Below, piece by piece: positions 2,274-31,075 of a stretch of DNA of 64,000 nt. Position numbers and translations under genes: made by a program. Positions within the stretch are counted from its first letter, which is position 1. Each line of letters opens with the position of its first letter. The DNA comes from a virus, in the IMG/VR virus record IMGVR_UViG_3300048855_000013, positions 1-64,000 of that record; one strand, written 5' to 3'. The notes below the pieces were generated by a model. It saw only the letters and a program-made list of their open reading frames with translations, made no database searches and was not told where the DNA came from.

Positions 2274-2590
2274 AGGTAAATCACCTCCGGTCCTTTAGCT
2301 TTGTTTTCTTTGATCCGCGCGTTCCGCTCATCAATTTCTGCCCATCGGTTTTCGCTGTTCTCCTTGACATAAGCAGCACTCTGCATGATGTAACTCTTTG
2401 AGCCAGCGTATCGAAGTTCTCGCAACAGTCGTGGATGACTGATGATTCCAATGAACTCATCAGGATCATCGGAAGATGGAGTAATGGTGAGCTTCCACTC
2501 ACTCCAGTCAGGATTCTCACTGGCGTCCACTACAACGGGCGGCTCCGGTGTGCCTGGTGCTGGGTGAAACAGTGCGCTTAGAAACTTCAT
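2270..2590 (-). CDS. hypothetical protein
   Basis: ORF with internal ATG at 2590 preceded by GGAGGATTG. Overlaps the stop of the CCA-enzyme gene. Confidence 0.4.
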   Translation of the reverse strand: MKFLSALFHPAPGTPEPPVVVDASENPDWSEWKLTITPSSDDPDEFIGIISHPRLLRELRYAGSKSYIMQSAAYVKENSENRWAEIDERNARIKENKAKGPEVIYL

Positions 2591-3279: not shown

Positions 3280-3457
3280 TCTTTTCCTCCTGCATCATAT
3301 TGATAGCTTCTCTGAGTGCGATGTACCGGTCAATCTCCCTGTCACCTATGTGCATAGGACCAAGAAACCGTAACACGCTCTGTGTTTCAGCCAATGTGAA
3401 TCCCTGGGCAGCGCATATCATCGCTGCTATATCCAAGAATGTTACGAAGATGGGCAT
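3272..3457 (-). CDS. hypothetical small protein
   Basis: 61-aa ORF in operon context with weak RBS. Confidence 0.35.
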   Translation of the reverse strand: MPIFVTFLDIAAMICAAQGFTLAETQSVLRFLGPMHIGDREIDRYIALREAINMMQEEKNA

Positions 3458-4356
3458 TAGAAGTCACCGTAGGCGACCTGAAAGGCTGAGATGCCCTTGG
3501 CTCGCCACATATCGATCACTCGGTTGCGGTCATCGAGAACGAAGTCCACATACCAGTTGTCCTTGATGTGGTTCTCGAAAATCTCATCCTTCACGATGGC
3601 ATCGTTGCGAGTATCCTTAGGAGTACGCATGAAGATGCGGTCAAAGATCACCTCGTGCTTCTTGAGCCACTGCTTGAGCACCTCACGGTAGGCTCCGTCG
3701 CGGCCCGACACAATGATGATCTGCACACCCAGGAAGGCCATCTTGTTCACCAGATCACGGACAACCCAGTCAATGCTGTCATCGATGTACTTACTGGTGT
3801 CGTAGGGACCACGATTGGTCATGTGAGCCAGGGTACCATCGATGTCTACGATAATAGCGTGTGGCAGACCAATGGTGGGCTTGTACGGCTTGAAGAGGTC
3901 GCCCTCCAGAAGTTCAGGCACAGGGGGGAAGGTTCCGTTCTTGCCGAGCTTCTTGTTGTAGAAGTCCTCGACCACCTGTGCACCCACCTGTGGAGTGCGG
4001 ATGGCATCACGACGCAGCGCCTCAGGGAGAGGTATGGGGAAGTCCTTGAACTCCACCTCTGCGCCCTCGTAGAACGCGATCACGAGAAGCTCACGGACGG
4101 ACTTGGCGTTCAGGTTGGTGTTGTCCACCACCACGTCGTAGCCCTTGCCCAGGAACTTCTTGATCTGCTCGTTCTGTAGCTCGGTGACGAGCTTCTCGGG
4201 GACACCATATCCCTTGCCGAAGTGACCCCATCGAATATTGTCACGGTTGACACGAGCGCGGTGCTGCCCCTCAGGGGCGTCGAGCACCCACCGGGTTGCC
4301 CAGGTGCTCTTTCCAGAGGCAGGAATGCCTCGGGTGATGATTAGCTTGCGAGCCAT
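3457..4356 (-). CDS. pnk: polynucleotide kinase / 3'-phosphatase (T4 Pnk-like, bifunctional)
   Basis: N-terminal P-loop GIPASGKST and C-terminal HAD phosphatase motif IVDIDGTL. Start reassigned to the ATG at 4356 with a GGAGGAACT RBS. Confidence 0.7.
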   Translation of the reverse strand: MARKLIITRGIPASGKSTWATRWVLDAPEGQHRARVNRDNIRWGHFGKGYGVPEKLVTELQNEQIKKFLGKGYDVVVDNTNLNAKSVRELLVIAFYEGAEVEFKDFPIPLPEALRRDAIRTPQVGAQVVEDFYNKKLGKNGTFPPVPELLEGDLFKPYKPTIGLPHAIIVDIDGTLAHMTNRGPYDTSKYIDDSIDWVVRDLVNKMAFLGVQIIIVSGRDGAYREVLKQWLKKHEVIFDRIFMRTPKDTRNDAIVKDEIFENHIKDNWYVDFVLDDRNRVIDMWRAKGISAFQVAYGDF

Positions 4357-4463
4357 AGTTCCTCCGCTTCGTCGTCTAGTGTAAATTCTGTTACGTTCCA
4401 CCACTCTTCATCTCCAGCGATGAGAGCCATGAGTCTTGCTTCTGCCCCGTACACGATGTACAT
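4341..4463 (-). CDS. hypothetical small protein (40 aa)
   Basis: ATG with strong AGGAGGTATC RBS. Overlaps the pnk start. Below the ORF-track size cutoff. Confidence 0.3.
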   Translation of the reverse strand: MYIVYGAEARLMALIAGDEEWWNVTEFTLDDEAEELWLAS

Positions 4464-4471
4464 GATACCTC

Positions 4472-4807
4472 CTAGTCTTTCAGCCATCCATCTCGGAGTG
4501 GCTGACCAGGCTTACGACTGCAACAGCCGTCGCAGCCGTGGATGTTCTGGTAGTTCTGCCCTACGCTATTCAAGAAGCGAGCAGAATCAGGGTCTGGGTG
4601 GCCCACACCGTGCTCACAGATACGCTCCATGATCCCTCGGTCTGTGCGCCAGTTGTGAGGCCAGTGCTCGACGTTCTCAATGGCTTCACGATCCGGGTTA
4701 TGGATCACGCAGCCATCAGCGCAGCCTGCGTTGATAGTGTGTGTCTTGAGAACGTACGCACCATCGAGCGACCGCAAATCGCCGTTTTTGTCTCTTTCGA
4801 GAAGCAT
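4472..4807 (-). CDS. Cys/His-rich hypothetical protein (putative metal-binding)
   Basis: Start reassigned to the ATG at 4807 (GGAGGTTCC RBS). CxxGC...H...HWPHNW...CEHGVGHPDPD...HGCDGCC. Confidence 0.4.
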   Translation of the reverse strand: MLLERDKNGDLRSLDGAYVLKTHTINAGCADGCVIHNPDREAIENVEHWPHNWRTDRGIMERICEHGVGHPDPDSARFLNSVGQNYQNIHGCDGCCSRKPGQPLRDGWLKD

Positions 4808-4899
4808 GGAACCTCCAAAAAATTTTTTCCATTTTCCGCGCATGGGCCTGCGCTAGTAAGACACTAACACAGGCCCACGCCGATTTTCGTTGTATTCAG

Positions 4900-6411
4900 T
4901 TATTTCCCAGCTAGAACGGCACGAATGTCGTCAAGCGACTGCCATCTGAGGAATTCACCATCTCGGTAGACATCCTTCATCAGGTCATCGTGATCGCTGA
5001 TCCACTCGTCGTACGATAGGTCATCTACAAGCACCAGATCGCCGGTAGGGCTGCTGCGCACAACGAGCCGTCCACGAGCGCTCTTCTTGGTTCCGCTGTC
5101 CGTGATGGGATTCTTGCTGATCGCCTTCTCTTCACCGTTGATCCGAACCCACGTCGCCTTGATGGCCGACGAGAAAGTGTCGCGGGTCTGGTACTGGTAG
5201 GTGTAGCTGCCGACACCGAACACGATATTGGTGGAGGCAAATCCCTTGGCTGCCAGTCGTCGGATGATTTCACGAGCGCGGTCGAAGGTGATCGAGTCAC
5301 CGTAGATCGCACCGATGTGAGGATCGAGCACCTTGTAGCCCTGTGCGTTGACCGTGCCGCCGAAGACATCCCACAGAAGCTCGATGACGCCCTTCTGCGC
5401 AGGAGTACGAGCCGACTCTACAGGATACCCGGCCTCATACACCGTGGGATTCTCACCTGTAATGATGAGCACCGGATCACCCGAGTCAGGGCGCACGACG
5501 AGCTTGCCGTCACGAGCCATGATTTCGTCCTTGAGGTCCGGGAGAATGTTCGTCAGAACGTTCCACAAATCCCAGGTGTCGGACACAACGGACACGATGC
5601 CAGCCGGGTAGAGCTTGAGCAGTCGGGCGAACGTTTCACGCTCATCCTCTTCACCGCCAGCGCACATCACCGAGTGCTCGGTGGCGGGCACAGAGCCAAG
5701 AAGCCAGCCCTCGTAGGGCTGCTCGTAGGCTGCTCCGTAGTGCTGGTCCACCCACTCCAGCGACACCAGGGAATCTGAACCCTGGAAGCTGAGAAGGTGA
5801 CCGGCACCAGAAGCCGCAGCTGCGGTGTTTCCGGCCATTCCACGGTACGAGAAGTCATGACCCTGGAACTGGACTCCTGCGAGGCCATCCTGGTCCGTAT
5901 CCTCGGCACCAGCGACCAGCAAAGTCTTGAAATGATCCGCTAGCGTAGCCGAAGTGCTCGGCTGCCAGACAGAGGCGCTGATCCACGTTTCGAGGTAATT
6001 CACCAGCCAGTAGAAGTCCGGGTGAGTGTTGCGAATCGTGAACGACGGCACCTTGATCGGCACTCGTGTGCCCTCAGGGAGGGAACCGAACGCCAGCGGC
6101 AGGTAGCCTAGTTTGTGCAGCGCACGGATGTGGTCTGAGCCGACCGTGTTCGGGCCGAGAATGGAGTTAACCCTGTTCTCGTATTCGAGAACGATGTCCT
6201 CGATGTCGCCTTCGAAGAAGTCATCGAACTGGTTGGTCAGATCGACCAGGAAGCCCTGGAGTCCGAAGTGAACAACGTGCTCGATACCCTCGATGCGCGA
6301 GCCTCGGTTCGTGTAGTTCGAGAACACCTGCTCGGTACCCTCAGGGTACTGACGACGATGGTCGAGCTTGTAGGCATCGGTCTGGAGAAGTGGTGCTACT
6401 GCCTTACTCAT
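4900..6411 (-). CDS. nicotinamide phosphoribosyltransferase-like enzyme (Nampt/NadV family; candidate Namat)
   Basis: 503 aa. N-terminus LLQTDAYKLDHRRQYPEGTE and C-terminal GTKKSARGRL are typical of Nampt. RBS GAAGGAGG. Confidence 0.7.
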   Translation of the reverse strand: MSKAVAPLLQTDAYKLDHRRQYPEGTEQVFSNYTNRGSRIEGIEHVVHFGLQGFLVDLTNQFDDFFEGDIEDIVLEYENRVNSILGPNTVGSDHIRALHKLGYLPLAFGSLPEGTRVPIKVPSFTIRNTHPDFYWLVNYLETWISASVWQPSTSATLADHFKTLLVAGAEDTDQDGLAGVQFQGHDFSYRGMAGNTAAAASGAGHLLSFQGSDSLVSLEWVDQHYGAAYEQPYEGWLLGSVPATEHSVMCAGGEEDERETFARLLKLYPAGIVSVVSDTWDLWNVLTNILPDLKDEIMARDGKLVVRPDSGDPVLIITGENPTVYEAGYPVESARTPAQKGVIELLWDVFGGTVNAQGYKVLDPHIGAIYGDSITFDRAREIIRRLAAKGFASTNIVFGVGSYTYQYQTRDTFSSAIKATWVRINGEEKAISKNPITDSGTKKSARGRLVVRSSPTGDLVLVDDLSYDEWISDHDDLMKDVYRDGEFLRWQSLDDIRAVLAGK

Positions 6412-6599
6412 CAGACCTCCTTCGTGTTGTACATGAAGCCTTCGAAGTCTGTATTGTATTCGATGGTGCCAATACCGGCTCCATCCTCGTCCTCCAAGAC
6501 GACCTTGCCGATGAACACCTCATCGACCTCGTTGAGCTTGGCGAATTCTTCCACCAACGTGCCGATACGGACCAGCTGATCGCTGCGAAGTAGTGTCAT
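6411..6599 (-). CDS. hypothetical small protein encoded between the Nampt-like and Prs-like genes
   Basis: 62-aa acidic ORF with strong AAGGAGGCAAA RBS. ATGA-type coupling on both sides. Confidence 0.4.
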   Translation of the reverse strand: MTLLRSDQLVRIGTLVEEFAKLNEVDEVFIGKVVLEDEDGAGIGTIEYNTDFEGFMYNTKEV

Positions 6600-7540
6600 T
6601 TTGCCTCCTTGATAGAAAGCTCCTCGTAAAAGTACGGGAGCAGTTTGGTGACCTTTGCACCCACAGCCTCATTGTAGGCTCCGGGATGCGAATCGGTCGT
6701 AAAGATGTTGCCGTATGCCTCAGTCAGCTGTCCAGCGTTACCCGAGAAGATACCATGTGTGACCCAGAGGTCGAGGTTCTCACGGGGAATTCCCAGCACA
6801 CCAGCAAGGCCCATAAAGGTACCTCCACCATCACAGATGTCATCCACCACTAGATAGCGACCTTCGGTAGGCGGATACTCCACCTCGACAACATCTCCGT
6901 TTCCAGCGTATTCCTGATGCGTCCACTGCGCGGGAGCAGTGAACTTGAGCAGCTTGCCACTGTCGAAGTCACGCTCTTTACCAGCGAAGTATGTGGGTAC
7001 TCCGAGCTTGTCTCCGACACGCTGTGCGCGCCTGTGAGCGCCTTTGTCAGGTGCGATGACCCCAGCATACCGGGAACCCGGTTCTGAGCCGCCCACGGCC
7101 CGCACAGTGACCCTCTCGACCGGGATGGGGTACCCCACTAGCGGAGAGATGTTCAGATAGCTGCCCCGGTCCCCTCTGTAAAGGTCGTCGGACACATCAC
7201 TGTGCGGATCGATGTACACAATGCTGTGCGCTGCGATGTTCTCGACCATGTTGCGGTAGATTTGAACTCCTGCTGGCTCTCCTCGGTCTGCACGTGCTGC
7301 TGGGAGGTAAGGCAAGAACAGGTGACGGCGAGCGTGGGTTGTAGCCATAAGCAAGTCAGCCCACATCGCTGCGACCATCAGGTCATCCGTGCTGGCACCA
7401 CGAACCACAGCGAAGTATTCGATGTATTCGATAATGTCTTCCTTGGTGATGTGCCACTCACCGCCTGGAAACTGGAACGGCTTGAAATTGGTACGGACCA
7501 GATGCCCGCTCGGGGCTCTGCCCCAGAATTCGATGCTCAT
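6596..7540 (-). CDS. ribose-phosphate pyrophosphokinase (PRPP synthetase)-like enzyme (candidate Adps)
   Basis: PRPP-binding loop YLVVDDICDGGGT plus a THGIFSGNA segment match Prs. Start set at the ATG at 7540, which overlaps the upstream stop. Confidence 0.6.
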   Translation of the reverse strand: MSIEFWGRAPSGHLVRTNFKPFQFPGGEWHITKEDIIEYIEYFAVVRGASTDDLMVAAMWADLLMATTHARRHLFLPYLPAARADRGEPAGVQIYRNMVENIAAHSIVYIDPHSDVSDDLYRGDRGSYLNISPLVGYPIPVERVTVRAVGGSEPGSRYAGVIAPDKGAHRRAQRVGDKLGVPTYFAGKERDFDSGKLLKFTAPAQWTHQEYAGNGDVVEVEYPPTEGRYLVVDDICDGGGTFMGLAGVLGIPRENLDLWVTHGIFSGNAGQLTEAYGNIFTTDSHPGAYNEAVGAKVTKLLPYFYEELSIKEAK

Positions 7541-7788
7541 TTCATCCGCCCATCTTTCTTTGCTCGTTCTGCGAATTTTTCCTGGTTGCGCTGCTCTACA
7601 TCCACCTTGCGCCACTTGCTTGTATATCCCGCATCGTAAGCCCATGCGAGCCACAAGTGGTGGGAGTTGTCGTAGCAATCGTAATCCTGATTATCGGTGC
7701 GTCCCTCGAAGAAGGTCACAGCCGCCCCAATCAGATAGACAAGTACCAGCACGAAGATAATGATCGCGATAGCTGCAATACCAGCCAT
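7537..7788 (-). CDS. small membrane protein
   Basis: N-terminal hydrophobic helix AAIAIIIFVLVLVYLIGAAV. Confidence 0.45.
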   Translation of the reverse strand: MAGIAAIAIIIFVLVLVYLIGAAVTFFEGRTDNQDYDCYDNSHHLWLAWAYDAGYTSKWRKVDVEQRNQEKFAERAKKDGRMK

Positions 7789-8462
7789 CAGAAAGCCGCC
7801 TTCTCGAAGAGGTCAACAGTCTTCACCTTGACGATGATGCGCTTACCTCGCTGATCGTACAGCGGAACGACCGGGCGTGCAACCACGCCCTCTGCCATCA
7901 CATCTGCACCCGTGTTAGTGGATGCCAGGCGGGACCAGAGGCCACGAGACACAGCCGCCACGATGTAGTCGAGGCTGACTGCTCCGATGGTAACCGGGCG
8001 CAGCACAGGGATGTTCAGCTTGTCGTAGACATCCTCTACGTTGTCTTGGGAGAGCCACGAACCGTTCACACGGATGTCGTAGCCCACAAACTCCTTGTTG
8101 GGGGAGTAGTGAGCACCCGACTGGATGCCAGCACCATAGCCTTCTCCGACGAAGATGACCTCCTTCTCACCGAACATCTCCTCGACCTCTTCTTCCACGC
8201 CGGGAGCGTTGAAGTAGCTGGCGATCTTCTCGATGAGATGACCATGCAGCTGTGCTCGGTCTGTGCGTCCCTCGATGGCGAAGTTGTGCCCATCCCAGAC
8301 AACACGGATGTTGGTGCCATCGATTTTCTCGGTAGCCGTCCAGATGTCAGAGTCTGCCAGAGCCTGCACAGTGGGGTCCACCCAGAGGGAGCGATCCACC
8401 TTCTTGATGTCCTCGGCAGAGCGCTTGAACGGCCCTGCGATCTTGTGGTATTCGTCAGCCAC
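7788..8462 (-). CDS. RNA ligase, Rnl2-like nucleotidyltransferase domain only
   Basis: Motif I EKIDGTNIRV (compare T4 Rnl2 EKIHGTNFS). 224 aa. RBS AGGAGGAAAAAG. Confidence 0.55.
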   Translation of the reverse strand: MADEYHKIAGPFKRSAEDIKKVDRSLWVDPTVQALADSDIWTATEKIDGTNIRVVWDGHNFAIEGRTDRAQLHGHLIEKIASYFNAPGVEEEVEEMFGEKEVIFVGEGYGAGIQSGAHYSPNKEFVGYDIRVNGSWLSQDNVEDVYDKLNIPVLRPVTIGAVSLDYIVAAVSRGLWSRLASTNTGADVMAEGVVARPVVPLYDQRGKRIIVKVKTVDLFEKAAF

Positions 8463-20663: not shown

Positions 20664-20775
20664 GATTACTCCCTAGTTGATGATCGTGTTGACGATGCTA
20701 CTGATAGCAGCGAAGAACTGCCATGTCAGAAACGCTACCACAATTATGGCAACGACTACCAGAACTTTGTCAGTC

Positions 20776-21069
20776 CTAGTTGGCATAGTAAACCGTGCCG
20801 TTCAGGACCACGAATGACTGACCCTGCCCGTTACCCATGTTCGCTGCATCCCAGTAGCAGTTTTCGGTCGAATCTTCGGTACTGCAAGCCGGTAGCTGGT
20901 ACACAGGGTAATCCTGTGCAGGTTCGATGATGGGTGCCGGTTCCGTCACTGGCTCGACAATGGGTGCCGGTGCAGGTACCTGCTCATCCGGGATACATGC
21001 TGCCATCCCGAACACTGCCGATACACCCATAGCCGCCCCTGCAAGGGTAGCGATAATTGTCTTCTTCAC
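20776..21069 (-). CDS. secreted protein or lipoprotein
   Basis: Signal peptide MKKTIIATLAGAAMGVSAVFGMAAC followed by a Pro/Ala-rich repeat. Confidence 0.5.
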   Translation of the reverse strand: MKKTIIATLAGAAMGVSAVFGMAACIPDEQVPAPAPIVEPVTEPAPIIEPAQDYPVYQLPACSTEDSTENCYWDAANMGNGQGQSFVVLNGTVYYAN

Positions 21070-21947
21070 TGTGCTCTCCTATCTAGTGGATGACTGGCAT
21101 CCGACACCTAAGGTATACCCACCTAGGTACCGGATACCACACAACCCTATATAGCAGCCTAGTGTTTCTAGTGCCCTATGAGCGCTCGCCCTCGTGTTCA
21201 TCGTGTGTGATTGGCTTTTCAGCTATCATGGGTGCTGTGTTGTATGTGTAGCATGTGTGTCTATGACAGTGACAATGCATTTGTATGCAGCTTGTGTGAG
21301 TCGAAGCTCACTTGCCCATGTAGCCGAAAGTCAAATCTTTGTTTGTTCGGCCTGTTCTCTGTGTAGTTAGTGGCGAGTCGCACGCCGCAGCTGTTAGTGA
21401 CCTGCACTAGGGGATTTCGTCCGGCGAGCCTATGTGTATAGGCCATTCCGCCCTAGCGGGGTAGCTGTGTTCCTGTTGTTGGTATCAACTTAGCATGTGT
21501 GTTTCTGTGTGTCAAGTCTAAATGTTTGTGTGTCTAGGTGACTGGGCAGAGCCCCTTAGGGGATGTCCTACAGCAGAGATACACATAGAGACTATGACAC
21601 TCACACACGCTATGTAGTTGATATAGATACATACAAGCACAATCACAATGGATATGCAAGCGGTGTAGCTGCCTGCGTTTCGTGTGTCTGTGTTGCTATA
21701 TGTATAGCTAATCACACTGGGGTAGGAATCGCAAGCTTTTTCTTTGAAGCTGTGAATTTGATTTCAATGTTGACTTTTCAGTTGCGAAAGATTTCCACAT
21801 GCTGTACTATGCAACGACAGCGGAGTCGATTCTACTCATGTGTGTATTTGCCCACTTTCCTACATGAGTGCGAATACCCACATTTCGCTGGCTGGAAATT
21901 TGCTGGGTGATTTCTCACGCATGGACTTCTTCTGCTAGACTGCATGC
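21070..21947. repeat. Roughly 900 bp non-coding region with degenerate repeats (CATGTGTGT, TGTGTGTCT, CTATGACA, AGGGGAT). The ORFs listed here look spurious.
   Basis: Read directly. No plausible CDS. Lies at the strand-switch between the left and right arms. Confidence 0.4.
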
Positions 21948-22075
21948 ATGAGAGAATATATTGGTGATCGCCTACGCGCTCGGGCACAGTACGCTGGACC
22001 GGAGCTAGCAGAATTGCTGCTCGATGCCGCAGATGCTGTTGACTGGCTAAACGAAGTGATTGAGGAGTTGCGACT

Positions 22076-22218
22076 ATGACAGACTATAAGCTAGAGAACG
22101 AAATCAGGCGCACGCTTATGGCTGCTGGCCTGGAGCCCAATGAGGGCAACGTGAATATCGTGCTCGCACTGATGAGCCAGGGCTTCTTCAATTACCCTAC
22201 TGAGGGGGCGATAGATTC
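22076..22218 (+). CDS. hypothetical small protein (47 aa)
   Basis: GAGGAG RBS 9 nt upstream. Overlaps a 43-aa ORF (21948..22079) via ATGA. Confidence 0.3.
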
Positions 22219-22268
22219 GTGAGCTATAACTTCTAGCTGAGAAAACGCACTGAAAGTAATACTAGAGC

Positions 22269-22297
22269 TTGACAACATGCGCGCACGCATGTAAACT
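22269..22297 (+). promoter_or_regulatory. sigma70-like promoter TTGACA-N17-TAAACT. A near-palindrome ACATGCG...CGCATGT sits in the spacer.
   Basis: Read directly. Followed by GGAGGAGG and the ATG at 22328. Confidence 0.45.
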
Positions 22298-22327
22298 AAG
22301 AACATCAGTTCGGAGGAGGAATAGATT

Positions 22328-22513
22328 ATGAAGACAACACTAGCGGTAACGAACTACAACGACGAGGTGATCGCGAAGTTCGATGACGTGGACGCGGTGG
22401 AGATTCAGAACGGCGGAGTGCTCGCGGTACTGACTTCTTACAACGGCAAGCCGCGCGCGGACTACTTCGCCCCTAACACCTGGGATCGTGCACATGCGAA
22501 AGAGGCCGAGTGA
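22328..22513 (+). CDS. hypothetical protein
   Basis: Strong RBS. Confidence 0.5.
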   Translation: MKTTLAVTNYNDEVIAKFDDVDAVEIQNGGVLAVLTSYNGKPRADYFAPNTWDRAHAKEAE

Positions 22514-25452: not shown

Positions 25453-25695
25453 ATGGATCGGGAGATTAGAGATGTGATCATTGGAACCAGTGTGATGCTC
25501 TTCGGAGCATTTGCTCCACTCACGGTGGTTACTTTGCTCGGAATTCAGGTCTGGATCGGCCTTTTGCTCGCCGTTATCGTCACCGGAGTCGGTGTATGGA
25601 TGGTGGTAGACGCCTTTTTGCGCTATCGCTGGGTAGAGTTCAAGGAATTTGCACGGACTGCCATTGATGTATTTATGCCTAAGGGGGCCAATTGA
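25453..25695 (+). CDS. small membrane protein (2 TM)
   Basis: Hydrophobic helices. Confidence 0.45.
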   Translation: MDREIRDVIIGTSVMLFGAFAPLTVVTLLGIQVWIGLLLAVIVTGVGVWMVVDAFLRYRWVEFKEFARTAIDVFMPKGAN

Positions 25696-26249
25696 CAACT
25701 ATCGTCGCAGCTGAAATTGACGGTGAAGTGGTATGGGCTTGGGATTCCCAAGTGACGATGGGCGGCGAAGGCTCGGAACTGGAGTATGACAAGGTGTTCC
25801 ACAACGGCAGTGTCGTTGTGGGGCTCGCTGGGGCCATTGTGGACTCACAGACCTTCCGCTACACCGATCTTCCCGAGCTTGATACGTGGGATATCGACCG
25901 CTGGGTGACTGAGAAGCTCGCTAAGCGTGTCAAAAAGAAGACCAAGTACCACGGTGCTATCCTCGCGGAGGTTGGTGGCCGTGTCTACATCATCGGTCAG
26001 GAAGGCTCGTGGGTGCGTAACACCTCGGGAATCTATGCCATTGGCTCGGGAGCGGACTACGCTATGGGAGCTATGCTCAGTGGCGCTAGCCCCGGCCAGG
26101 CTGTGCTCGTTGCAGCGCAGCTGGACCTCGGCACAGGGGGCACTATCGTCATGGCGACCTCTAAGGAGATTCGCTCAGGGCATATTGCCTTCGATGAGGA
26201 GGAAGAGCCGAAGAAGGCCAAGAAGAAAAAGAAGGACAAGAAAAAGTGA
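25692..26249 (+). CDS. HslV-like Ntn-hydrolase (proteasome beta-type peptidase) with a C-terminal poly-Lys tail
   Basis: N-terminus MTTIVAAEIDGEVV (compare HslV MTTIVSVRRNGHVV, Thr1 nucleophile), YDKVF lysine, and YAIGSGADYA (compare IAIGSGGPYA). Tail KKAKKKKKDKKK. Confidence 0.6.
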   Translation: MTTIVAAEIDGEVVWAWDSQVTMGGEGSELEYDKVFHNGSVVVGLAGAIVDSQTFRYTDLPELDTWDIDRWVTEKLAKRVKKKTKYHGAILAEVGGRVYIIGQEGSWVRNTSGIYAIGSGADYAMGAMLSGASPGQAVLVAAQLDLGTGGTIVMATSKEIRSGHIAFDEEEEPKKAKKKKKDKKK

Positions 26250-26492: not shown

Positions 26493-26521
26493 TTGACAAA
26501 CCACTCAGAAGCTGCAATACT
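26493..26521 (+). promoter_or_regulatory. putative promoter TTGACA-N17-AATACT upstream of the tRNA array
   Basis: Read directly. Confidence 0.35.
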
Positions 26522-26595
26522 TTACTTATTGATCCCAAGGCAGAGCTTTGGCGGCTATGATGAAAACCTTCGCCGTGAGGAAGGTTACCAACTAT

Positions 26596-26667
26596 TCCCC
26601 CGTAGCTCATTGGCAGAGCGGCAGGCCGTTAACCTGCGCGTACTTGGTTCGATCCCAGGCGGGGGAG
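26596..26667 (+). tRNA. tRNA-Asn (anticodon GTT) with unusual C33
   Basis: Manual cloverleaf: acceptor TCCCCCG/CGGGGGA, D GCTC/GAGC, AC GCAGG-CCGTTAA-CCTGC, T CTTGG-TTCGATC-CCAGG. Confidence 0.6.
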
Positions 26668-26732
26668 CGTTTGCTGGTTGCAGAGAAACCAGCTGGTTGT
26701 GGTTGTGAGTGATTCCCTTGTAAACTCTCGAT

Positions 26733-26809
26733 ACCGATTGTGTTCCCGTTGGACGGGAGGCGGCTTCCAAACCCGCTAAGCTATAGGGGTTCGATTCCTC
26801 CAGTCGGTG
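26733..26809 (+). tRNA. tRNA-like. Possible tRNA-Trp (CCA) with an irregular connector and variable region.
   Basis: Acceptor ACCGATT/AGTCGGT, T-arm AGGGG-TTCGATT-CCTCC, loop TTCCAAA. 77 nt. Confidence 0.3.
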
Positions 26810-27045
26810 CGACTTAGTGGCTACTAGTCACCAAAGGAGATGGCAGCGGGGCGCGACCAGTACCCAATAACGGGGCCACTAAGTTTTACTTGACAAAACC
26901 CAGTTCGTCTGGGAGAATGGTTACATGATGTTTGAACTTGATCTACACCTGGCGGCTTACCCCGCTTAGTAGTCGAGCCTACGCAAAATGTAGCCTTTGA
27001 CTCTCAGAGTCGGGGGCATTTTTTATAACTACACAGAGTACACAT

Positions 27046-27117
27046 GGGCCTGTGGCTTGATAGGGAAGCAGCACCTTTGCAAGGTGTTATATGGGGGTTC
27101 GAATCCCCTCGGGTCCA
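27046..27117 (+). tRNA. tRNA-Ala (TGC)
   Basis: Acceptor GGGCCTG/CGGGTCC, D GCTT/AAGC, AC GCACC-TTTGCAA-GGTGT, T GGGGG-TTCGAAT-CCCCT. Confidence 0.6.
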
Positions 27118-27188
27118 CGTAAGGTTCCGCTCAGATGGAGTAGCGGACGAAAGTAGCGGCAGATGGAGTTCGCTAGCCTCACTTACAT

Positions 27189-27262
27189 TGCGGGTTAGAC
27201 TGGAGGCGGTTCCAGCCAAGTCTCATAAGCTTAGGAGAGAGGTTCGATTCCTCTACCCGCAA
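27189..27262 (+). tRNA. tRNA-Met/fMet-like (CAT) with an atypical D region
   Basis: Acceptor TGCGGGT/ACCCGCA, AC CAAGT-CTCATAA-GCTTA, T AGAGG-TTCGATT-CCTCT. Confidence 0.4.
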
Positions 27263-27338
27263 CTACAGGTAGCCTACTATCCTCTGGCCTCGGGCCAGTC
27301 TGACCGCAGAAGCGGAAGGGAACAAATCAGTAGGATGA

Positions 27339-27413
27339 CTGGGTGTGGGGCAGTTGGTCAGCCTGCTTGATTTGGAATCAAGAGTATCGTGGGTTCGAAT
27401 CCCACCACCCAGA
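27339..27413 (+). tRNA. tRNA-Pro (TGG)
   Basis: Acceptor CTGGGTG/CACCCAG, AC CTTGA-TTTGGAA-TCAAG, T GTGGG-TTCGAAT-CCCAC. Confidence 0.65.
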
Positions 27414-27444
27414 CGGCGGGTGCCGCAATGGTAGACGGTGAGCG

Positions 27445-27537
27445 TAGTAAAGCACAGGGCAGATGTCCTAGGAAACCCCTCGTGCTTAGGGCGCGAAAAG
27501 TGACGACTAAGTACAGGTTCGAATCCTGTCCTGCTAA
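27445..27537 (+). tRNA. tRNA-like with a clear T-arm (ACAGG-TTCGAAT-CCTGT). The 5' half does not resolve. Possibly degenerate or type II.
   Basis: T-arm read directly. The best acceptor pairing is poor. Confidence 0.25.
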
Positions 27538-27554
27538 CGAAACAACTGAATATG

Positions 27555-27629
27555 GTGGCCGTAGCCCAAGCAGGTAGAGGCGGTGGACTGTGAATCCACT
27601 CAGTGCGAGTTCGATTCTCGTCGGTCACC
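27555..27629 (+). tRNA. tRNA-His (GTG) with encoded G-1 and C73
   Basis: Acceptor GTGGCCG/CGGTCAC, AC GTGGA-CTGTGAA-TCCAC, T GCGAG-TTCGATT-CTCGT. A G precedes the acceptor. Confidence 0.65.
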
Positions 27630-27652
27630 CGAAACAACTAAATAGAGAACTT

Positions 27653-27721
27653 GTGGTGGTAGGTGATACTGATACCTTGAAACTCAACCCTGTGGGATTC
27701 AATTCCTAAAAGGCCACCACA
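27653..27721 (+). tRNA. tRNA-like (69 nt). Perfect 7-bp acceptor GTGGTGG/CCACCAC but no canonical T-loop. Probably degenerate.
   Basis: Read directly. Confidence 0.3.
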
Positions 27722-27727
27722 ACATAT

Positions 27728-27799
27728 GCTCATGAAGCTGAATGGTTAAGCAGCACCCTGTCACGGTGTGTGTCGCCGGTTCGATCCCGGTCATGGGCG
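27728..27799 (+). tRNA. tRNA-Asp (GTC)
   Basis: Acceptor GCTCATG/CATGGGC, AC GCACC-CTGTCAC-GGTGT, T GCCGG-TTCGATC-CCGGT. Confidence 0.65.
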
Positions 27800-27803
27800 C
27801 TCT

Positions 27804-27876
27804 GGTCCCGTAGAGTAGCGGTTATCTCCCCTGATTCTCAATCAGGAAAACGTCGGTTCGAATCCGACCGGGATCA
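27804..27876 (+). tRNA. tRNA-Glu (CTC)
   Basis: Acceptor GGTCCCG/CGGGATC, AC CCTGA-TTCTCAA-TCAGG, T GTCGG-TTCGAAT-CCGAC. Confidence 0.65.
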
Positions 27877-27879
27877 CGC

Positions 27880-27907
27880 TTGACAAAAGTGTAAACTCGT
27901 GTAAACT
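27880..27907 (+). promoter_or_regulatory. promoter TTGACA-N16-TAAACT (same -10 as the 22.27 kb promoter)
   Basis: Read directly. Immediately upstream of the HNH gene. Confidence 0.45.
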
Positions 27908-27913
27908 AGAGGA

Positions 27914-28192
27914 ATGGTTTACACACGAGAGCAGCGCAAGGTCTATCAGGCAGAGTATCGTCGGAAGCGGCGAGATGAAGCCGTAGAGTATCTAGGCGGC
28001 ACGTGCGTCGTCTGCGGTACAACAGACCGGCTAGAAATCAACCATATTGATCCGCGCGAGAAGGCATTCAACCCTTCCCGTTTCTGGGGAAAGCTGGCAG
28101 ATTACTGGACAGAGATTGACAAGTGCAACCTTCTGTGCAAAGATCATCATGTAGAAGAAACAAGACGGCAGTACCGCGAGGGACTGCTATAA
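27914..28192 (+). CDS. HNH endonuclease embedded in the tRNA array
   Basis: CVVCG...EINHIDP...CNLLCKDHH. Confidence 0.6.
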   Translation: MVYTREQRKVYQAEYRRKRRDEAVEYLGGTCVVCGTTDRLEINHIDPREKAFNPSRFWGKLADYWTEIDKCNLLCKDHHVEETRRQYREGLL

Positions 28193-28264
28193 CTCTCCGT
28201 TGGGTAGGTTACCTGGCGCTGGCCGTAACCCAGTAGCCTGAGACTTCGAGTGTTTCCGGGGAGA
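28193..28264 (+). tRNA. tRNA with probable anticodon GTA (Tyr-type, class I length) and a short D-loop
   Basis: Acceptor CTCTCCG/CGGGGAG, AC GCTGG-CCGTAAC-CCAGT, T GAGAC-TTCGAGT-GTTTC. Confidence 0.4.
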
Positions 28265-28396
28265 CGCAACACAAGAGGGACTCAGCGCCTACGACCAGCT
28301 GAATACAGGATCACGACCCCACCGTGCGGCCTACGCTCTAGCAGCGTAAGCTGAACACATTGTTCCCCACCCTCCTCCGGGATTGGTGGGGCATTT

Positions 28397-28468
28397 GCCC
28401 TCAGAGCTTTGCAGGTAAAGCGCCTGGCTGAAACCCAGGAGTCATCGGTTCAAAACCGGTTGAGGGCA
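28397..28468 (+). tRNA. tRNA-Phe (GAA)
   Basis: Acceptor GCCCTCA/TGAGGGC, D GCTT/AAGC, AC CCTGG-CTGAAAC-CCAGG, T ATCGG-TTCAAAA-CCGGT. Confidence 0.7.
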
Positions 28469-28530
28469 CAGGGAATCATAACCTTGTCAGTTCAAAACAA
28501 CCCTACAAAAGATTCAGGGAACTGTCGTAT

Positions 28531-28616
28531 GGCCTAGTGGTGAAATTTGGTATACGCACTGCGCTTAGAACGCAGCGCCTTCGGGCATGTCGGTTCGATC
28601 CCGACCTGGGCTACCA
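28531..28616 (+). tRNA. tRNA-Leu (TAG), type II, CCA encoded
   Basis: Acceptor GGCCTAG/CTGGGCT-A-CCA, AC CTGCG-CTTAGAA-CGCAG, variable-arm hairpin GCC-TTCG-GGC, T GTCGG-TTCGATC-CCGAC. Confidence 0.7.
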
Positions 28617-28618
28617 TT

Positions 28619-28776
28619 TGACAAACAAGAAAAAGTATGGGAAGATTGATTCATGAACGTAACGCAGGGAACCACAAGTAAGCGAGGCCAGTCGGTCATC
28701 GTGTCCTTTGTGGTCCTCTAATAACAGTTCCTGTTATCACACCGACCCTCTTGACACCGCCAGGAGGGTCTTTTTT
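28619..28776 (+). other. promoter-like TTGACA, then a 22-codon mini-ORF, then a rho-independent terminator (GACCCTC...GAGGGTC + T6). The cassette sits inside the tRNA array.
   Basis: Read directly. Terminator stem at 28744..28770 with T-run to 28776. Confidence 0.35.
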
Positions 28777-28778
28777 AT

Positions 28779-28863
28779 GGCGTGTAAAGCTCTAATGGTT
28801 GGGCACTAGTCTTGAAAACTAGGGGTCGGGAAACCGGCAGGGGTTCGATTCCTCTGCGCGCCG
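28779..28863 (+). tRNA. tRNA-Ser (TGA), type II
   Basis: Acceptor GGCGTGT/GCGCGCC, AC CTAGT-CTTGAAA-ACTAG, variable-arm hairpin GTCGG-GAAA-CCGGC, T AGGGG-TTCGATT-CCTCT. Confidence 0.65.
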
Positions 28864-28902
28864 CTTGTTCAGGAACACTGAACTGAACGAAAAACTGAAC
28901 AT

Positions 28903-28987
28903 GGCTAGTAAACCGTGAAGGTCACGGACCTCCCTGCTAAGGAGCGTGCTCGGGAAACCGGGTGGGAATCGTTCTCTCTGCTAGCCG
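28903..28987 (+). tRNA. tRNA-Ser (GCT)-like, type II, with a truncated T-loop (GGGAA-TCG-TTCTC). Possible pseudogene.
   Basis: Acceptor GGCTAGT/GCTAGCC perfect. AC loop CTGCTAA. Confidence 0.35.
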
Positions 28988-29000
28988 CGCAACACACTAA

Positions 29001-29072
29001 CCCCTTGTAGCTCAGAAGCAGAGCAGGCGGCTCTTACCCGTCGGGCCGGGATGGCAGAATTCCCCAGGGGGA
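29001..29072 (+). tRNA. tRNA-Lys (CTT)-like with a non-canonical T-loop (GGCAGAA)
   Basis: Acceptor CCCCTTG/CAGGGGG, D GCTC/GAGC, AC GGCGG-CTCTTAC-CCGTC. Confidence 0.4.
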
Positions 29073-29088
29073 CGTAACAACTAAATAT

Positions 29089-29162
29089 GGGACATATGCC
29101 GATATGGTGCGGCGTCAGGCTTCCACCCTGAAATAGAGCGAGTTCGAGCCTCGCATGTCTCT
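29089..29162 (+). tRNA. tRNA-Gly (TCC)
   Basis: Acceptor GGGACAT/ATGTCTC, D GCCG/CGGC, AC TCAGG-CTTCCAC-CCTGA, T GCGAG-TTCGAGC-CTCGC. Confidence 0.65.
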
Positions 29163-29166
29163 CTTT

Positions 29167-29235
29167 CGTCCTCGCATCGGCATGCAACCGAACTTTACAC
29201 GTTTGGTCTACAGGGTTCGACACCCTGGGGGACGA
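29167..29235 (+). tRNA. tRNA-Val (TAC)-like, 69 nt with a shortened D-arm
   Basis: Acceptor CGTCCTC/GGGGACG, AC CGAAC-TTTACAC-GTTTG, T CAGGG-TTCGACA-CCCTG. Confidence 0.4.
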
Positions 29236-29267
29236 CAATGGTATTACGTCCATTCAAAACGTAGTTG

Positions 29268-29340
29268 TGCCCCTATAGCTTAATGGGCAAAGCATGTGTC
29301 TTGTAAACACAAGTCAGGAGTTCGAATCTCCGTGGGGGCT
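29268..29340 (+). tRNA. tRNA-Thr (TGT)
   Basis: Acceptor GCCCCTA/TGGGGGC, D GCTT/AAGC, AC TGTGT-CTTGTAA-ACACA, T AGGAG-TTCGAAT-CTCCG. Confidence 0.65.
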
Positions 29341-29386
29341 CTGTGCAACTTTTATGGTAACACCGATTACAACAATAACTAAACAT

Positions 29387-29460
29387 GCCGCTATAGCTCA
29401 GCAGGACAGAGCAGATGCCTACGAAGCATCGTGTCGGGGGTTCGAATCCCTCTAGCGGCA
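29387..29460 (+). tRNA. tRNA-Arg (ACG)
   Basis: Acceptor GCCGCTA/TAGCGGC perfect, D GCTC/GAGC, AC GATGC-CTACGAA-GCATC, T GGGGG-TTCGAAT-CCCTC. Confidence 0.7.
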
Positions 29461-29521
29461 CAATAGAGAGTGTGCAGCCCGGTAGGATGGACGCATAAGA
29501 TGAAACCGCACTCCTAGATTT

Positions 29522-29592
29522 ACCCGATTAGTGTAACGGCAACACGTCTGACTCTGAATCAGATAGTCTTGGTTCGAATCCAGGATCGGGTG
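29522..29592 (+). tRNA. tRNA-Gln (CTG)
   Basis: Acceptor ACCCGAT/ATCGGGT perfect, D GTGT/ACAC, AC TCTGA-CTCTGAA-TCAGA, T CTTGG-TTCGAAT-CCAGG. Confidence 0.7.
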
Positions 29593-29637
29593 CGTTAGAA
29601 TAGACTTATCGAGCGATAAGTCAAGTGTAATGTACAT

Positions 29638-29708
29638 ACCGGGTAAAGACACTGGCCGTCTAGCGCTCTTTTAAAGCGTGAGAAGGAGTTCGATTCTCCT
29701 ATCCGGTA
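29638..29708 (+). tRNA. tRNA-Lys (TTT)
   Basis: Acceptor ACCGGGT/ATCCGGT, D AGAC/GTCT, AC GCGCT-CTTTTAA-AGCGT, T AGGAG-TTCGATT-CTCCT. Confidence 0.7.
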
Positions 29709-29712
29709 CTGT

Positions 29713-29784
29713 GCCGATGTGGCTGAATGGTTCAGGCAGCGGATTGCAAACCCGCGTACTCCGGTTCGATCCCGGACTTCGGCT
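29713..29784 (+). tRNA. tRNA-Cys (GCA)
   Basis: Acceptor GCCGATG/CTTCGGC (one T-T mismatch), AC GCGGA-TTGCAAA-CCCGC, T TCCGG-TTCGATC-CCGGA. Confidence 0.55.
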
Positions 29785-29788
29785 CTTT

Positions 29789-29855
29789 CCCGCTAGTCGT
29801 GGATGCACGAGGGTGTTCTAAGCCTAGAGTCTCGGTTCGATTCCGAGTAGTGGGA
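29789..29855 (+). tRNA. tRNA-Arg (TCT)-like, 67 nt with a 4-nt D-loop
   Basis: Acceptor CCCGCTA/TAGTGGG, D CGTG-GATG-CACG, AC AGGGT-GTTCTAA-GCCTA, T CTCGG-TTCGATT-CCGAG. Confidence 0.35.
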
Positions 29856-29871
29856 CTCATATTGGAGGAAT

Positions 29872-30561
29872 ATGACGAACGTTATGGTGGCTACCCCTGC
29901 TTATGGGGGCCAAGTCACAGAGCCTTACCTACAGTCGATGCTGAATCTGGTCTTCGAGTCTCACCGACTCGGCTTCAAGATCAACGTTCACACGCTGACA
30001 GGTGAGTCCCTCATCACGAGGGCACGCAACAACATGCTCCACACCTTCCTATCGCAGCCTGAGTACGATCAGCTACTGTGGATTGACTCGGATATCGGGT
30101 TTGCTCCACTCAATGCTCTTCGACTCATCCATAGTGAGCACGAGGTCACAGCAACACCTTACCCTCTCAAAGCTATCTGGTGGGATGCAGTGGCAGGTAG
30201 CACTGCTGCGGAGAAGCAACTCAGTGGCAAGCACTATGTGGTCAATCGGATCGGTGACGAGAAGGATGAAAACGGCTTCTCTGAGGTCATGGATGCTGGC
30301 ACCGGGTTCATGTGCATCAAGCGATCAGCCCTAGAGAAGATGATTGATGCTTATCCTGAGCTACAGTACACGTCAGATGGCAACAATCACAACGAAGACG
30401 AAGACCGTAAGCGCTACCTGTTCTTCGACACTATGGTAGACGATGGGCGTTATCTCTCCGAGGACTACGCCTTCTGCCGTCGCTGGCAGAGAATCGGTGG
30501 TAAGGTCATGCTGGACATGAGTGCACCGCCGCTCCGACACTTCGGAAACTACGCCTACTAG
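29872..30561 (+). CDS. putative GT-A fold glycosyltransferase (DxD-type) embedded in the tRNA array
   Basis: LWIDSDIGF DxD-like motif. N-terminal MVATPAYGG. RBS GGAGGAAT. Confidence 0.4.
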   Translation: MTNVMVATPAYGGQVTEPYLQSMLNLVFESHRLGFKINVHTLTGESLITRARNNMLHTFLSQPEYDQLLWIDSDIGFAPLNALRLIHSEHEVTATPYPLKAIWWDAVAGSTAAEKQLSGKHYVVNRIGDEKDENGFSEVMDAGTGFMCIKRSALEKMIDAYPELQYTSDGNNHNEDEDRKRYLFFDTMVDDGRYLSEDYAFCRRWQRIGGKVMLDMSAPPLRHFGNYAY

Positions 30562-30568
30562 GCGTTAT

Positions 30569-30642
30569 TGGCAATAGCTCAGCTGGTTGCTGAGGGCAAC
30601 CTGATAAGCTGCTTGAGGTGGGTTCGATCCCCGCATTGCCAA
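30569..30642 (+). tRNA. tRNA-Ile (GAT)
   Basis: Acceptor TGGCAAT/ATTGCCA perfect, D CTCA/TGAG, AC GCAAC-CTGATAA-GCTGC, T GTGGG-TTCGATC-CCCGC. Confidence 0.65.
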
Positions 30643-30654
30643 CTCTCTGTGAAT

Positions 30655-30686
30655 CCCCTGCGTGCGTTTGACGCAGGGGATTTTTG
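30655..30686 (+). terminator. rho-independent terminator (CCCCTGCGT-GCGTTTG-ACGCAGGGG plus T-run) after the tRNA array
   Basis: Read directly. Confidence 0.55.
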
Positions 30687-30705
30687 GGTCTAAGATGGAG
30701 TCTCT

Positions 30706-30927
30706 ATGGAAAAAATTACACTCTACAGCAAGCCCAACTGTGTCCAGTGCACAGCCACCAAGACTTACCTCGACAGGAACGAAATCCCGTATGAGCCAGT
30801 CGATGTTACCCAGGATGAATCCGCTTACAACCACATCGTAGGACTCGGATACCAGCAGGTTCCAGTGATCGAGGTGGGAGGACGCCACTGGTCAGGATTC
30901 GACCCTAACCAGCTTGCAACTCTGTAA
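30706..30927 (+). CDS. nrdH: NrdH-like glutaredoxin
   Basis: YSKPNCVQCTATK with CVQC active site. 73 aa. Confidence 0.65.
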   Translation: MEKITLYSKPNCVQCTATKTYLDRNEIPYEPVDVTQDESAYNHIVGLGYQQVPVIEVGGRHWSGFDPNQLATL

Positions 30928-31008
30928 CTGATACTGTATACTGGTATGTACGTGAACTCCTCCGTCACGCCATAGACTCGCCGTGTGAACATGGCTTGAG
31001 TCCGAAAA

Positions 31009-31039
31009 GCCCCCAGGCTCCTCCTCCTGGGGGCTTTTT
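31009..31039 (+). terminator. rho-independent terminator (GCCCCCAGG-CTCCTCCT-CCTGGGGGC-TTTTT)
   Basis: Read directly. Confidence 0.6.
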
Positions 31040-31045
31040 GTATAT

Positions 31046-31075
31046 TTGACACATGATCAATACCCATGATATCAT
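31046..31075 (+). promoter_or_regulatory. promoter TTGACA-N18-TATCAT. It would give a leaderless or near-leaderless terS transcript.
   Basis: Read directly. No SD before any candidate start at 31053, 31074 or 31083. Confidence 0.4.

Follow-up and report, generated by a model that had tools for sequence, protein, structure and literature searches.

The 878-bp gene-free gap at positions 21070-21947 of IMG/VR virus record IMGVR_UViG_3300048855_000013 separates two divergent gene arms of a phage genome. All coordinates given here are positions in the 64,000-nt window of this record, meaning the whole stretch of DNA that was analysed. We propose, with a probability of about 0.62, that the gap is an early control region that combines divergent host-type promoters with a long structured leader or non-coding RNAs (ncRNAs). 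From its sequence features, it is most likely a conserved early control module of an already known type that carries an RNA family not present in Rfam. A preliminary description made from the sequence alone had listed divergent promoters, one or more ncRNAs, the iterons of a replication origin, and a cos or packaging site as possible explanations for this region. The first two find support in the present analysis, whereas the last two do not.

Protein searches with the neighbours of the gap yielded only a handful of relatives among 5.8 billion proteins. An identical copy of the 20 kb around the gap is present in an independent Logan assembly (L008), and thus the region is not an assembly artefact. 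Protein P0001, on a 70.5-kb JGI contig, is 99% identical. L007 and L009 exhibit ~60-75% protein identity and have gaps of ~990 and 976 bp, respectively, and the 68.8-kb contig L011, whose HslV protein is 61% identical, has a gap of 1068 bp. The structured core of the element is represented by three independent sequences only (the window, which equals L008, plus L007 and L009), and the rightward promoter segment is represented by four with the addition of L011.

The gap is bounded on the left by the GTG start codon (21069, minus strand) of a 97-amino-acid signal-peptide protein and on the right by the ATG (21948) of a 43-amino-acid gene, in agreement with the ~900-bp coding-free interval of the preliminary description. 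This last gene appears to be real because its product is identical in L009 at 41 of 42 amino acids despite eight nucleotide changes. The absence of a credible open reading frame (ORF) within the gap, also claimed earlier, is borne out as well. All ORFs of at least 40 amino acids are Cys-rich translations of TGTGTG runs, and a coding function was rejected because stops or frameshifts disrupt every one of them in L007 and/or L009. Moreover, gene callers place no gene in the equivalent 0.98-1.07 kb of L008, L007, L009, and L011, such that these relatives are equally gene-free here rather than carrying ordinary genes.

The comparison with related phages that had been recommended earlier revealed that the gap aligns end to end among the window, L007, and L009. 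Its identity to the window is 82.6% for L007 and 77.4% for L009, compared to 58.7% and 58.6% at four-fold degenerate sites, which were taken from the best-conserved genes near the gap. These values demonstrate at the sequence level that the gap is under purifying selection. The genes touching the gap on either side cannot be aligned among the three phages. Invariant blocks (21089-21168 with one change, 21319-21362, 21384-21401, 21457-21489, 21701-21718, 21739-21755, 21782-21813, and 21906-21952) are interspersed with variable patches that nevertheless still pair, and this patchy conservation argues against a simple recent exchange.

Promoters were called from matches to the −35 and −10 consensus of the sigma-70 type, from which the sigma-factor preferences of the host may differ. 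Three promoter-like sites, termed P_L, P_R1, and P_R2 (Table 1), are kept in the window, L007, and L009. Each combines −35 and −10 hexamers at a spacing of 16-18 nt and is directed toward the adjacent flanking operon, which is the arrangement predicted for divergent promoters. The class that includes P_L is strongly enriched, as there are seven TTGACA-N16-18-TANNNT sites in the window versus 0.89 expected (~8-fold; none of 100 shuffles reaches seven), and all seven point the same way as the local genes. In L007 and L009 the P_L sequence is TTGACA-17-TAGGTT. The predicted P_L start precedes the first leftward gene by ~410 nt.

On the rightward side, P_R1 lies within the AT-richest 150 bp of the gap and is invariant among the three phages with the exception of one spacer base. 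The aligned position in L011 has TTGAAA-17-TAGAAT, followed by shared motifs and then by a perfect TTGACA-16-TATAAT. P_R2 is invariant in the same three phages, with conservation ending at ATGAG, beyond which L007 has another gene. There is no Shine-Dalgarno sequence before the ATG at 21948, and the geometry of the −10 hexamer and this start codon predicts that P_R2 probably gives a leaderless mRNA. Leaderless mRNAs are common in Actinobacteria. The segment between P_R1 and the start codon has 115 nt identical in the window and L007 and a 28-nt deletion in L009, and its motifs GCGGAG, TTTCC, CTG(G/A)AAATTT, and CGCATGGACTT are retained even in L011. A CTCATGT/ACATGAG stem considered for the P_R1 leader was dropped, being broken in L007 and missing one arm in L009.

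Several additional observations concern these promoters. The octamer CACATGCT is common to P_L (21495-21502) and P_R1 (21797-21804), where it is located directly upstream of the −10 hexamer, and could represent a site for a common regulator or an extended −10 context. The 43-amino-acid first rightward gene (in the 21948-22222 region) is found in the window and L009 and is missing from L007. There, the homologue of the second gene of the window (22076-22222) begins at the same conserved ATGAG (L007 2993-3112), which indicates that modules were swapped precisely at this start codon, after a leaderless-type promoter. The 400-bp switch gap of the more distant Curtobacterium phage Yappy (L001 4577-4976) carries TTGACA-17-TATAGG upstream of its first rightward gene.

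The ncRNA option is supported by several covarying hairpin arms and by strong z-scores in alignment shuffles. RNAalifold analysis of the three sequences reveals many helices with double substitutions. Column-shuffle z-scores range from −4 to −8 over 21070-21735 and are not significant over 21736-21947, and the same test applied to neighbouring coding genes as a control gives values mostly within ±2, with one window at −3.4. Throughout, compensatory substitutions exceed those in controls (0-5 of 500 shuffles; 29-52% of cells paired in slid controls), although only three sequences are compared.

One of these elements is arm A. On the minus strand, 73 of its 74 cells (98.6%) are paired and eight of 25 pairs are double-changed, values that none of 500 shuffles reaches and that compare with 29-45% pairing in slid controls. 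Its z-score on this strand is −5.2, and reading the plus strand instead would turn its five G.U cells into A.C. The apical hairpin has one sequence per phage, namely GCCUAU/AUAGGC, GUCAC/GUGAC, and, in L009, GGC-UUCG-GCC, which presents a cUUCGg tetraloop on the minus strand. A similar pattern is observed for H1, whose stems in the three phages are GTGAG/CTCAC, GACAT/ATGTC, and GAGAA/TTCTC, with three of five pairs double-changed and all cells paired. The surrounding region (21270-21365, minus) has 97.9% of cells paired and four double-changed pairs, a result reached by 4-5 of 500 shuffles, with slid controls at 33-50%. The neighbouring GCCGAA...TTCGGC hairpin gives no covariation evidence because its stem never varies.

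The left hairpin forms within a block that has a single substitution in 80 nt among the three phages. Its consensus fold has a predicted energy of −42.6 kcal/mol (z=−6.2) on the minus strand versus −24.6 kcal/mol (z=−3.7) on the plus strand. Fifteen G.U cells exist on the minus strand only, their plus-strand counterparts being A.C, and at the lone substitution (21109) a minus-strand U-A pair becomes U.G. As part of the leftward leader, this hairpin could serve in processing, stability, or translation control. For the entire leader (21070-21482), the z-score is −6.65 on the minus strand versus −4.27 on the plus strand. Thus, the folding preference of the sequence to the left of P_L agrees with the direction of this promoter. 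There is no intrinsic terminator between P_L and the first leftward gene, and therefore the structured RNA would at least initially be a leader.

Two additional arms lie between P_L and P_R1. Arm B, read on the plus strand, has 93.8% of cells paired and six double-changed pairs (none of 500 shuffles reaches this; slid controls 30-52%), with z-scores of −8.15 on the plus and −5.9 on the minus strand. Arm C has six covarying pairs and z-scores of −4.2 on the plus and −5.0 on the minus strand. A similarity between arms A and B (TAGGGGAT...) was judged incidental, as the common words sit in different pairings.

Table 1. Positions of promoter-like sites, folded elements, and repeated words in the gap.
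Feature	Position	Strand	Description
P_L	21515->21487	minus	TTGACA-17-TAAGTT; predicted start ~21480 (A)
P_R1	21782-21810	plus	TTGCGA-17-TACTAT; predicted start ~21817 (A)
P_R2	21912-21941	plus	TTCTCA-18-TAGACT; −10 ends 6 nt before ATG 21948
Segment downstream of P_R1	21817-21947	plus	~130 nt; conserved sequence, apparently unstructured (z=−1.9, not significant)
Left hairpin	21076-21165	minus	Invariant block; irregular, ~34 pairs; ends at Shine-Dalgarno AGGAG 21078-21074 of first leftward gene
H1	21296-21311	minus	5-bp stem different in each phage; conserved loop CUUCGA/C (minus)
GCCGAA...TTCGGC hairpin	21323-21351	minus	Invariant; 6 bp, 17-nt loop, in 44-nt perfectly conserved block
Arm A	21386-21469	minus	84-nt interrupted stem-loop; four stacked helices; begins ~13 nt past predicted P_L start
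Arm B	21506-21603	plus	~100-nt stem-loop; CCCC-UUA-GGGG tip
Arm C	21636-21708	ambiguous	Variable nested hairpin plus GCTATA-TG-TATAGC hairpin
TAGCATGTGTGT	21249, 21491		Repeated word of the preliminary description
CATGTGTGT	21252, 21494, 21837		Repeated word of the preliminary description
TGTGTGTCT	21254, 21527		Repeated word of the preliminary description
CTATGACA	21261, 21592		Repeated word of the preliminary description
AGGGGAT	21409, 21558		Repeated word of the preliminary description

These features suggest how the region might operate. It would serve as the early region of a lytic siphovirus-type phage akin to actinobacteriophages, in which host RNA polymerase starts at sigma-70-type promoters in both directions. 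Presumably, P_L fires leftward to give a ~410-nt leader that folds serially into arm A, the GCCGAA hairpin, H1, and the long terminal hairpin, which reaches up to the ribosome-binding site of the first leftward gene. Rightward transcription into small early genes would come from P_R1 and P_R2, with the P_R2 mRNA probably leaderless, and arms B and C would probably be read in the same direction from a start near P_L. Most likely, the folded RNA works in cis on the transcript that carries it, through 5′ stabilisation, endonucleolytic processing at the long hairpin, or translation control of the first gene, and/or it accumulates as an abundant, stable early ncRNA.

A number of points weigh against this proposal. 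The promoters are putative, being called as consensus matches. The covariation counts are small and come from three sequences, and related sequences can beat shuffles. The single-sequence fold z-scores of the window are modest, at −1 to −2.9, and uninformative. Strand preference is mixed, with arm B favouring the plus strand and arm C equal, a pattern that would also fit a single-stranded DNA structure. Among all TANNNT hexamers conserved in the three phages, none belongs to a conserved promoter with a −35 element that could serve arms B and C, and a candidate −10 hexamer (TAGCAT at 21491) is lost in L009. The −35-less TANNNT sites at 21160 (plus), 21594 (minus), and 21834 (minus) were not adopted, as they lack a −35 element and would mean convergent transcription. 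The transcription of arms B and C is the weakest link of the proposal for this reason. In addition, the arm A covariance model has no copy in the more distant L011 or in Yappy. Finally, the gaps of L007 and L009 are 73% identical to each other, which is no better than the 74% at their four-fold degenerate sites and indicates a mosaic history.

This mosaic history raises the question of whether the gap has a specific function at all. Its conservation might reflect recent horizontal exchange of a non-coding module, with hairpins and repeats arising from GT/CA-rich low complexity. The location of mosaic boundaries exactly at both gene starts, the 115-nt stretch identical in the window and L007, and the equal divergence of gap and four-fold sites between L007 and L009 would all be expected from such exchange. 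However, several independent helices keep pairing through double substitutions in variable patches, and pure mosaic exchange is insufficient to explain these compensatory changes. Shuffles of alignment columns that keep composition give z-scores to −8 while the coding control remains near 0, and the same architecture and promoter positions are found in L011 at far greater divergence. An absence of function is therefore very improbable.

The five repeated words of the preliminary description were all found where it had placed them (Table 1). A 12-nt repeat is marginal (P=0.026 in 500 dinucleotide-preserving shuffles), and 8-mers occurring at least three times are enriched (4 versus 0.11 expected in shuffles of the same type). 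These statistics arise because the GT-rich left half of the gap (G+T 63%, 21170-21545) faces a CA-rich patch (21570-21660). No repeated word is kept in all its copies across the window, L007, and L009, and the copy of TAGCATGTGTGT at 21491 is the reverse complement of the P_L spacer and −10 hexamer. The words amount to two or three copies of GT-rich sequence, rather than at least three conserved direct repeats with a 10-22-bp unit next to an AT-rich unwinding element, of which only an AT-rich patch is present. Moreover, Tandem Repeats Finder (TRF) detects only one array in the gap (9 nt x 2.6, score 32), and no tandem or phased repeat family exists.

The earlier suggestion of origin iterons thus lacks support, and we regard it as rather unlikely that the gap is or contains a DNA replication origin at which transcription and/or hairpins extruded as single-stranded DNA prime bidirectional synthesis. 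Such an origin would be consistent with the AT-rich patch at 21700-21850 (GC 0.37-0.39), and the mixed strand preference of the hairpins would suit a DNA structure. Transcription-primed origins are located next to early promoters in T7 and T4. As the preliminary description had proposed, the strand switch at the gap is real, and the minimum of cumulative GC skew lies alongside it at ~21000-21150. A strong skew (|0.1-0.16|) is confined to ~12 kb to the left and right of the switch. Structural genes co-stranded with the early rightward genes have a skew of about zero (compare 8000-36000 with 36000-57000), and thus the skew does not simply track the coding strand. However, GC skew also follows gene orientation, and the two effects are confounded. 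The gap has neither iterons nor DnaA-box-like sites, and its G.U-dependent helices and UUCG tetraloop point to RNA. Replication genes are located on the minus strand at the far right end of the window, which is the far end of the leftward arm, and the switch gaps measure just 100-400 bp in distant relatives that share these replication genes.

Physical genome ends, whether cos, pac, or a terminal-repeat boundary, offer another explanation for a long non-coding gap, and in Yappy a terminal-repeat boundary does lie in a non-coding stretch of ~700 bp (910-1615, containing the right boundary of the repeat). Nevertheless, the ends of that genome consist of a 1602-bp direct terminal repeat (1-1602) situated inside the leftward arm, ~3-4.5 kb from the switch. 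The gap studied here occurs once in the window, lies 10 kb from the terminase genes, and forms an internal, contiguous part of the sequence in the window, L008, L007, L009, and L011, including four independent assemblies. We consider it highly unlikely that the gap marks genome ends, and the cos or packaging interpretation accordingly finds no support.

A different possibility is that the structured RNAs are stand-alone, trans-acting ncRNAs that are processed from early transcripts and manipulate the host or its transcription machinery. They might, for instance, act as a decoy for a ribonuclease or an RNA-binding protein, serve as an anti-defence RNA, or, like put, ride on RNA polymerase. The constraint on ~650 nt of folded sequence exceeds the usual need of a simple 5′ untranslated region, and a long hairpin stands between the folded part and the first gene. 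The latter resembles the RNase III sites of T7 early RNA, which are separating hairpins. The P_left RNA of Cluster A mycobacteriophages combines stability and very high abundance with toxicity to the host (PMC5712189), and the position of arm A ~13 nt past the predicted start recalls that of putL just downstream of P_L (PMC9378689). Against this, the region offers neither a terminator nor a mapped processing site, does not resemble put (arm A forms one long stem-loop rather than two), and has no known target, and an Rfam scan at E<=5 gave nothing beyond two chance miRNA matches. Also, a terminator scan of the leftward arm found no convincing co-oriented intrinsic terminators to override, and internal promoters are present in the rightward arm itself. 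We consider this explanation unlikely.

Equally tentative is its most elaborate version, wherein the gap encodes an uncatalogued family of large (~400-650 nt in total), multi-arm RNAs. A compact bidirectional early promoter would drive their synthesis both ways, the long terminal hairpin would be the point of their release from the mRNAs, and they would work in trans in host takeover, perhaps through sequestration of a host ribonuclease or RNA-binding protein or through modification of RNA polymerase. If true, such a family would provide a structural handle on the unexplained abundant early ncRNAs of actinobacteriophages.

Searches for additional representatives of the early control region were performed on a broad scale. 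Nucleotide searches of GenBank phages in near and distant modes gave no match, scans of IMG/VR with two flanking proteins returned nothing, and a search with the HslV-like protein recovered only unrelated loci (L003-L006), all without the element. Exact-pattern scans with the perfectly conserved blocks produced zero matches in IMG/VR (scanned twice), JGI metagenomes (twice), and GTDB genomes (once), indicating that the lineage is absent from these collections. An nhmmer profile of the gap and the arm A covariance model gave no credible match in L001-L006, L011, L012, or L014. The closest GenBank relative is Yappy, with a portal protein of 47.7% amino acid identity and a syntenic genome that includes the same tRNA order. 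It has almost no small genes in common with the window near the switch, and its 400-bp switch gap has no homology to the gap described here. Other farther genomes likewise have short switch gaps (328 bp in L016, ~105 bp in L012). In the gap of L011, which differs in sequence, two hairpin units resemble each other, AACCCTGTGCTATGGGTT and TACCCTGTATCAGGGTT, and TTCTTACT comes after each of them (5706-5780). Several more long hairpins are present there, with single-sequence z-scores down to −5 at 5576-5875.

The window covers most of a ~70-kb siphovirus-type phage genome with a GC content of ~0.54. The leftward arm (475-21069) carries genes for nicotinamide adenine dinucleotide (NAD) salvage and tRNA repair. 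On its minus strand at 475-8462, the NAD-salvage set comprises NAMPT (4900-6411), a phosphoribosyl pyrophosphate synthetase-like protein (6596-7678), and a nucleotidyltransferase (475-1209). The tRNA-repair set, also on the minus strand, comprises an RNA ligase (1206-2273), a polynucleotide kinase (3457-4404), a CCA-adding enzyme (2590-3279), and a second ligase-like protein (7788-8462). Together these genes look like a counter-defence toolkit. The first leftward gene (20673-21069, minus), presumably the earliest, encodes the 97-amino-acid protein with a signal peptide and a Cys residue (lipoprotein-like) and contains a 30-nt tandem duplication (20921-20980). It is followed by a 37-amino-acid transmembrane ORF, and the two products could be a superinfection-exclusion pair. 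L007 and L009 have unalignable sequence in place of the 97-amino-acid gene.

The rightward arm begins at 21948 with small ORFs, followed by the HslV-like peptidase, 18 tRNAs, and then the terminase, portal, and tail genes. The gene for the HslV-like (proteasome-family) peptidase (25692-26249) is conserved in the lineage and in many farther contigs (24 protein clusters, E<=1e-10), and no HslU partner was noticed near it. The bank of 18 tRNAs (26493-31075) is located 4.6 kb from the structured element and is divided into units by TTGACA-type promoters at 26493, 26890, 27880, and 31046 and by three strong intrinsic terminators (26993-27017, 28744-28770, and 31003-31040), each followed by new promoters. 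In the case of the last terminator, the promoter is 6 nt farther on, ahead of the packaging genes.

The value of this region lies in the combination, within a rare uncultured phage lineage, of constraint above that of neighbouring genes with explicit base-pair covariation. Abundant early ncRNAs beside the early promoters of actinobacteriophages have been detected by RNA-seq for years, with no structural or functional model. The covariation data provide testable helices (arm A, H1, arm B, and the hairpin preceding the Shine-Dalgarno sequence) along with promoter positions. If confirmed, the element would constitute a new structured RNA family and a tractable case for the roles of early leaders in stabilisation, processing, translation control, or host manipulation. 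Annotation pipelines should treat the 0.9-kb gap as a regulatory or RNA module, and not as missing genes or an origin.

Among known systems, T7 offers an instructive parallel. Its early region has promoters A1-A3, a ~400-nt leader, and RNase III site R0.3 before gene 0.3. Both regions combine host-type early promoters in tandem with a long leader that is not translated and with a long hairpin directly upstream of the first early gene. However, the T7 region points one way only and is located at the end of the genome, the two sequences are unrelated, and RNase III cleavage of the RNA described here is hypothetical.

Established families of structured RNAs provide no direct counterpart. A scan of the whole window with Rfam 15 at the gathering threshold, which included GOLLD, ROOL, 6S, riboswitch, and T-box families, found only tRNAs. 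The permissive scan (4227 families, 20900-22400) returned its two chance miRNA matches at E=0.8 and 2.7, far below the gathering score. GOLLD and ROOL are similar in being large structured ncRNAs of phages that also carry tRNA arrays, but they are unlike this element in that the latter has no Rfam match even at the permissive threshold and is located at a promoter region rather than in the tRNA bank.

The put RNAs of phage HK022 are ~70 nt in length, form two stem-loops, and occur as similar copies just downstream of P_L and P_R (PMC9378689). As with put, which acts without a dedicated protein, predicted folded RNA lies here just downstream of putative divergent early promoters. Unlike put, arm A consists of one 84-nt interrupted stem-loop, arm B is not related to it, and the arm A model finds no second copy. 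Antitermination of this type gained no support, as the terminator scans of the two arms give no sign that read-through is needed.

Highly expressed non-coding regions have been reported for phage WC1 (PMC10986025). In the Cluster A mycobacteriophages L5, D29, and StarStuff, a ~500-nt ORF-free region extends from P_left to the first early gene, and its RNA is the most abundant, stable RNA of infection, with unknown function (PMC5712189). That region lies at the genome's right end, whereas the gap described here is at an internal divergent switch and carries no repeats of the repressor stoperator type. No sequence similarity was detected or expected, although no direct comparison with L5 or D29 was made. 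The evidence also differs in kind. For Cluster A, expression has been demonstrated, with the P_left RNA transcribed as the first part of the early operon, and no covariation-supported structure has been reported. In contrast, for the present phage transcription is predicted and the structure is supported by covariation. Despite these differences, in both systems an early lytic promoter is separated from the first early gene by ~0.4-0.5 kb of non-coding sequence lacking a conserved ORF, and by this analogy the Cluster A P_left RNA would be the closest known situation.

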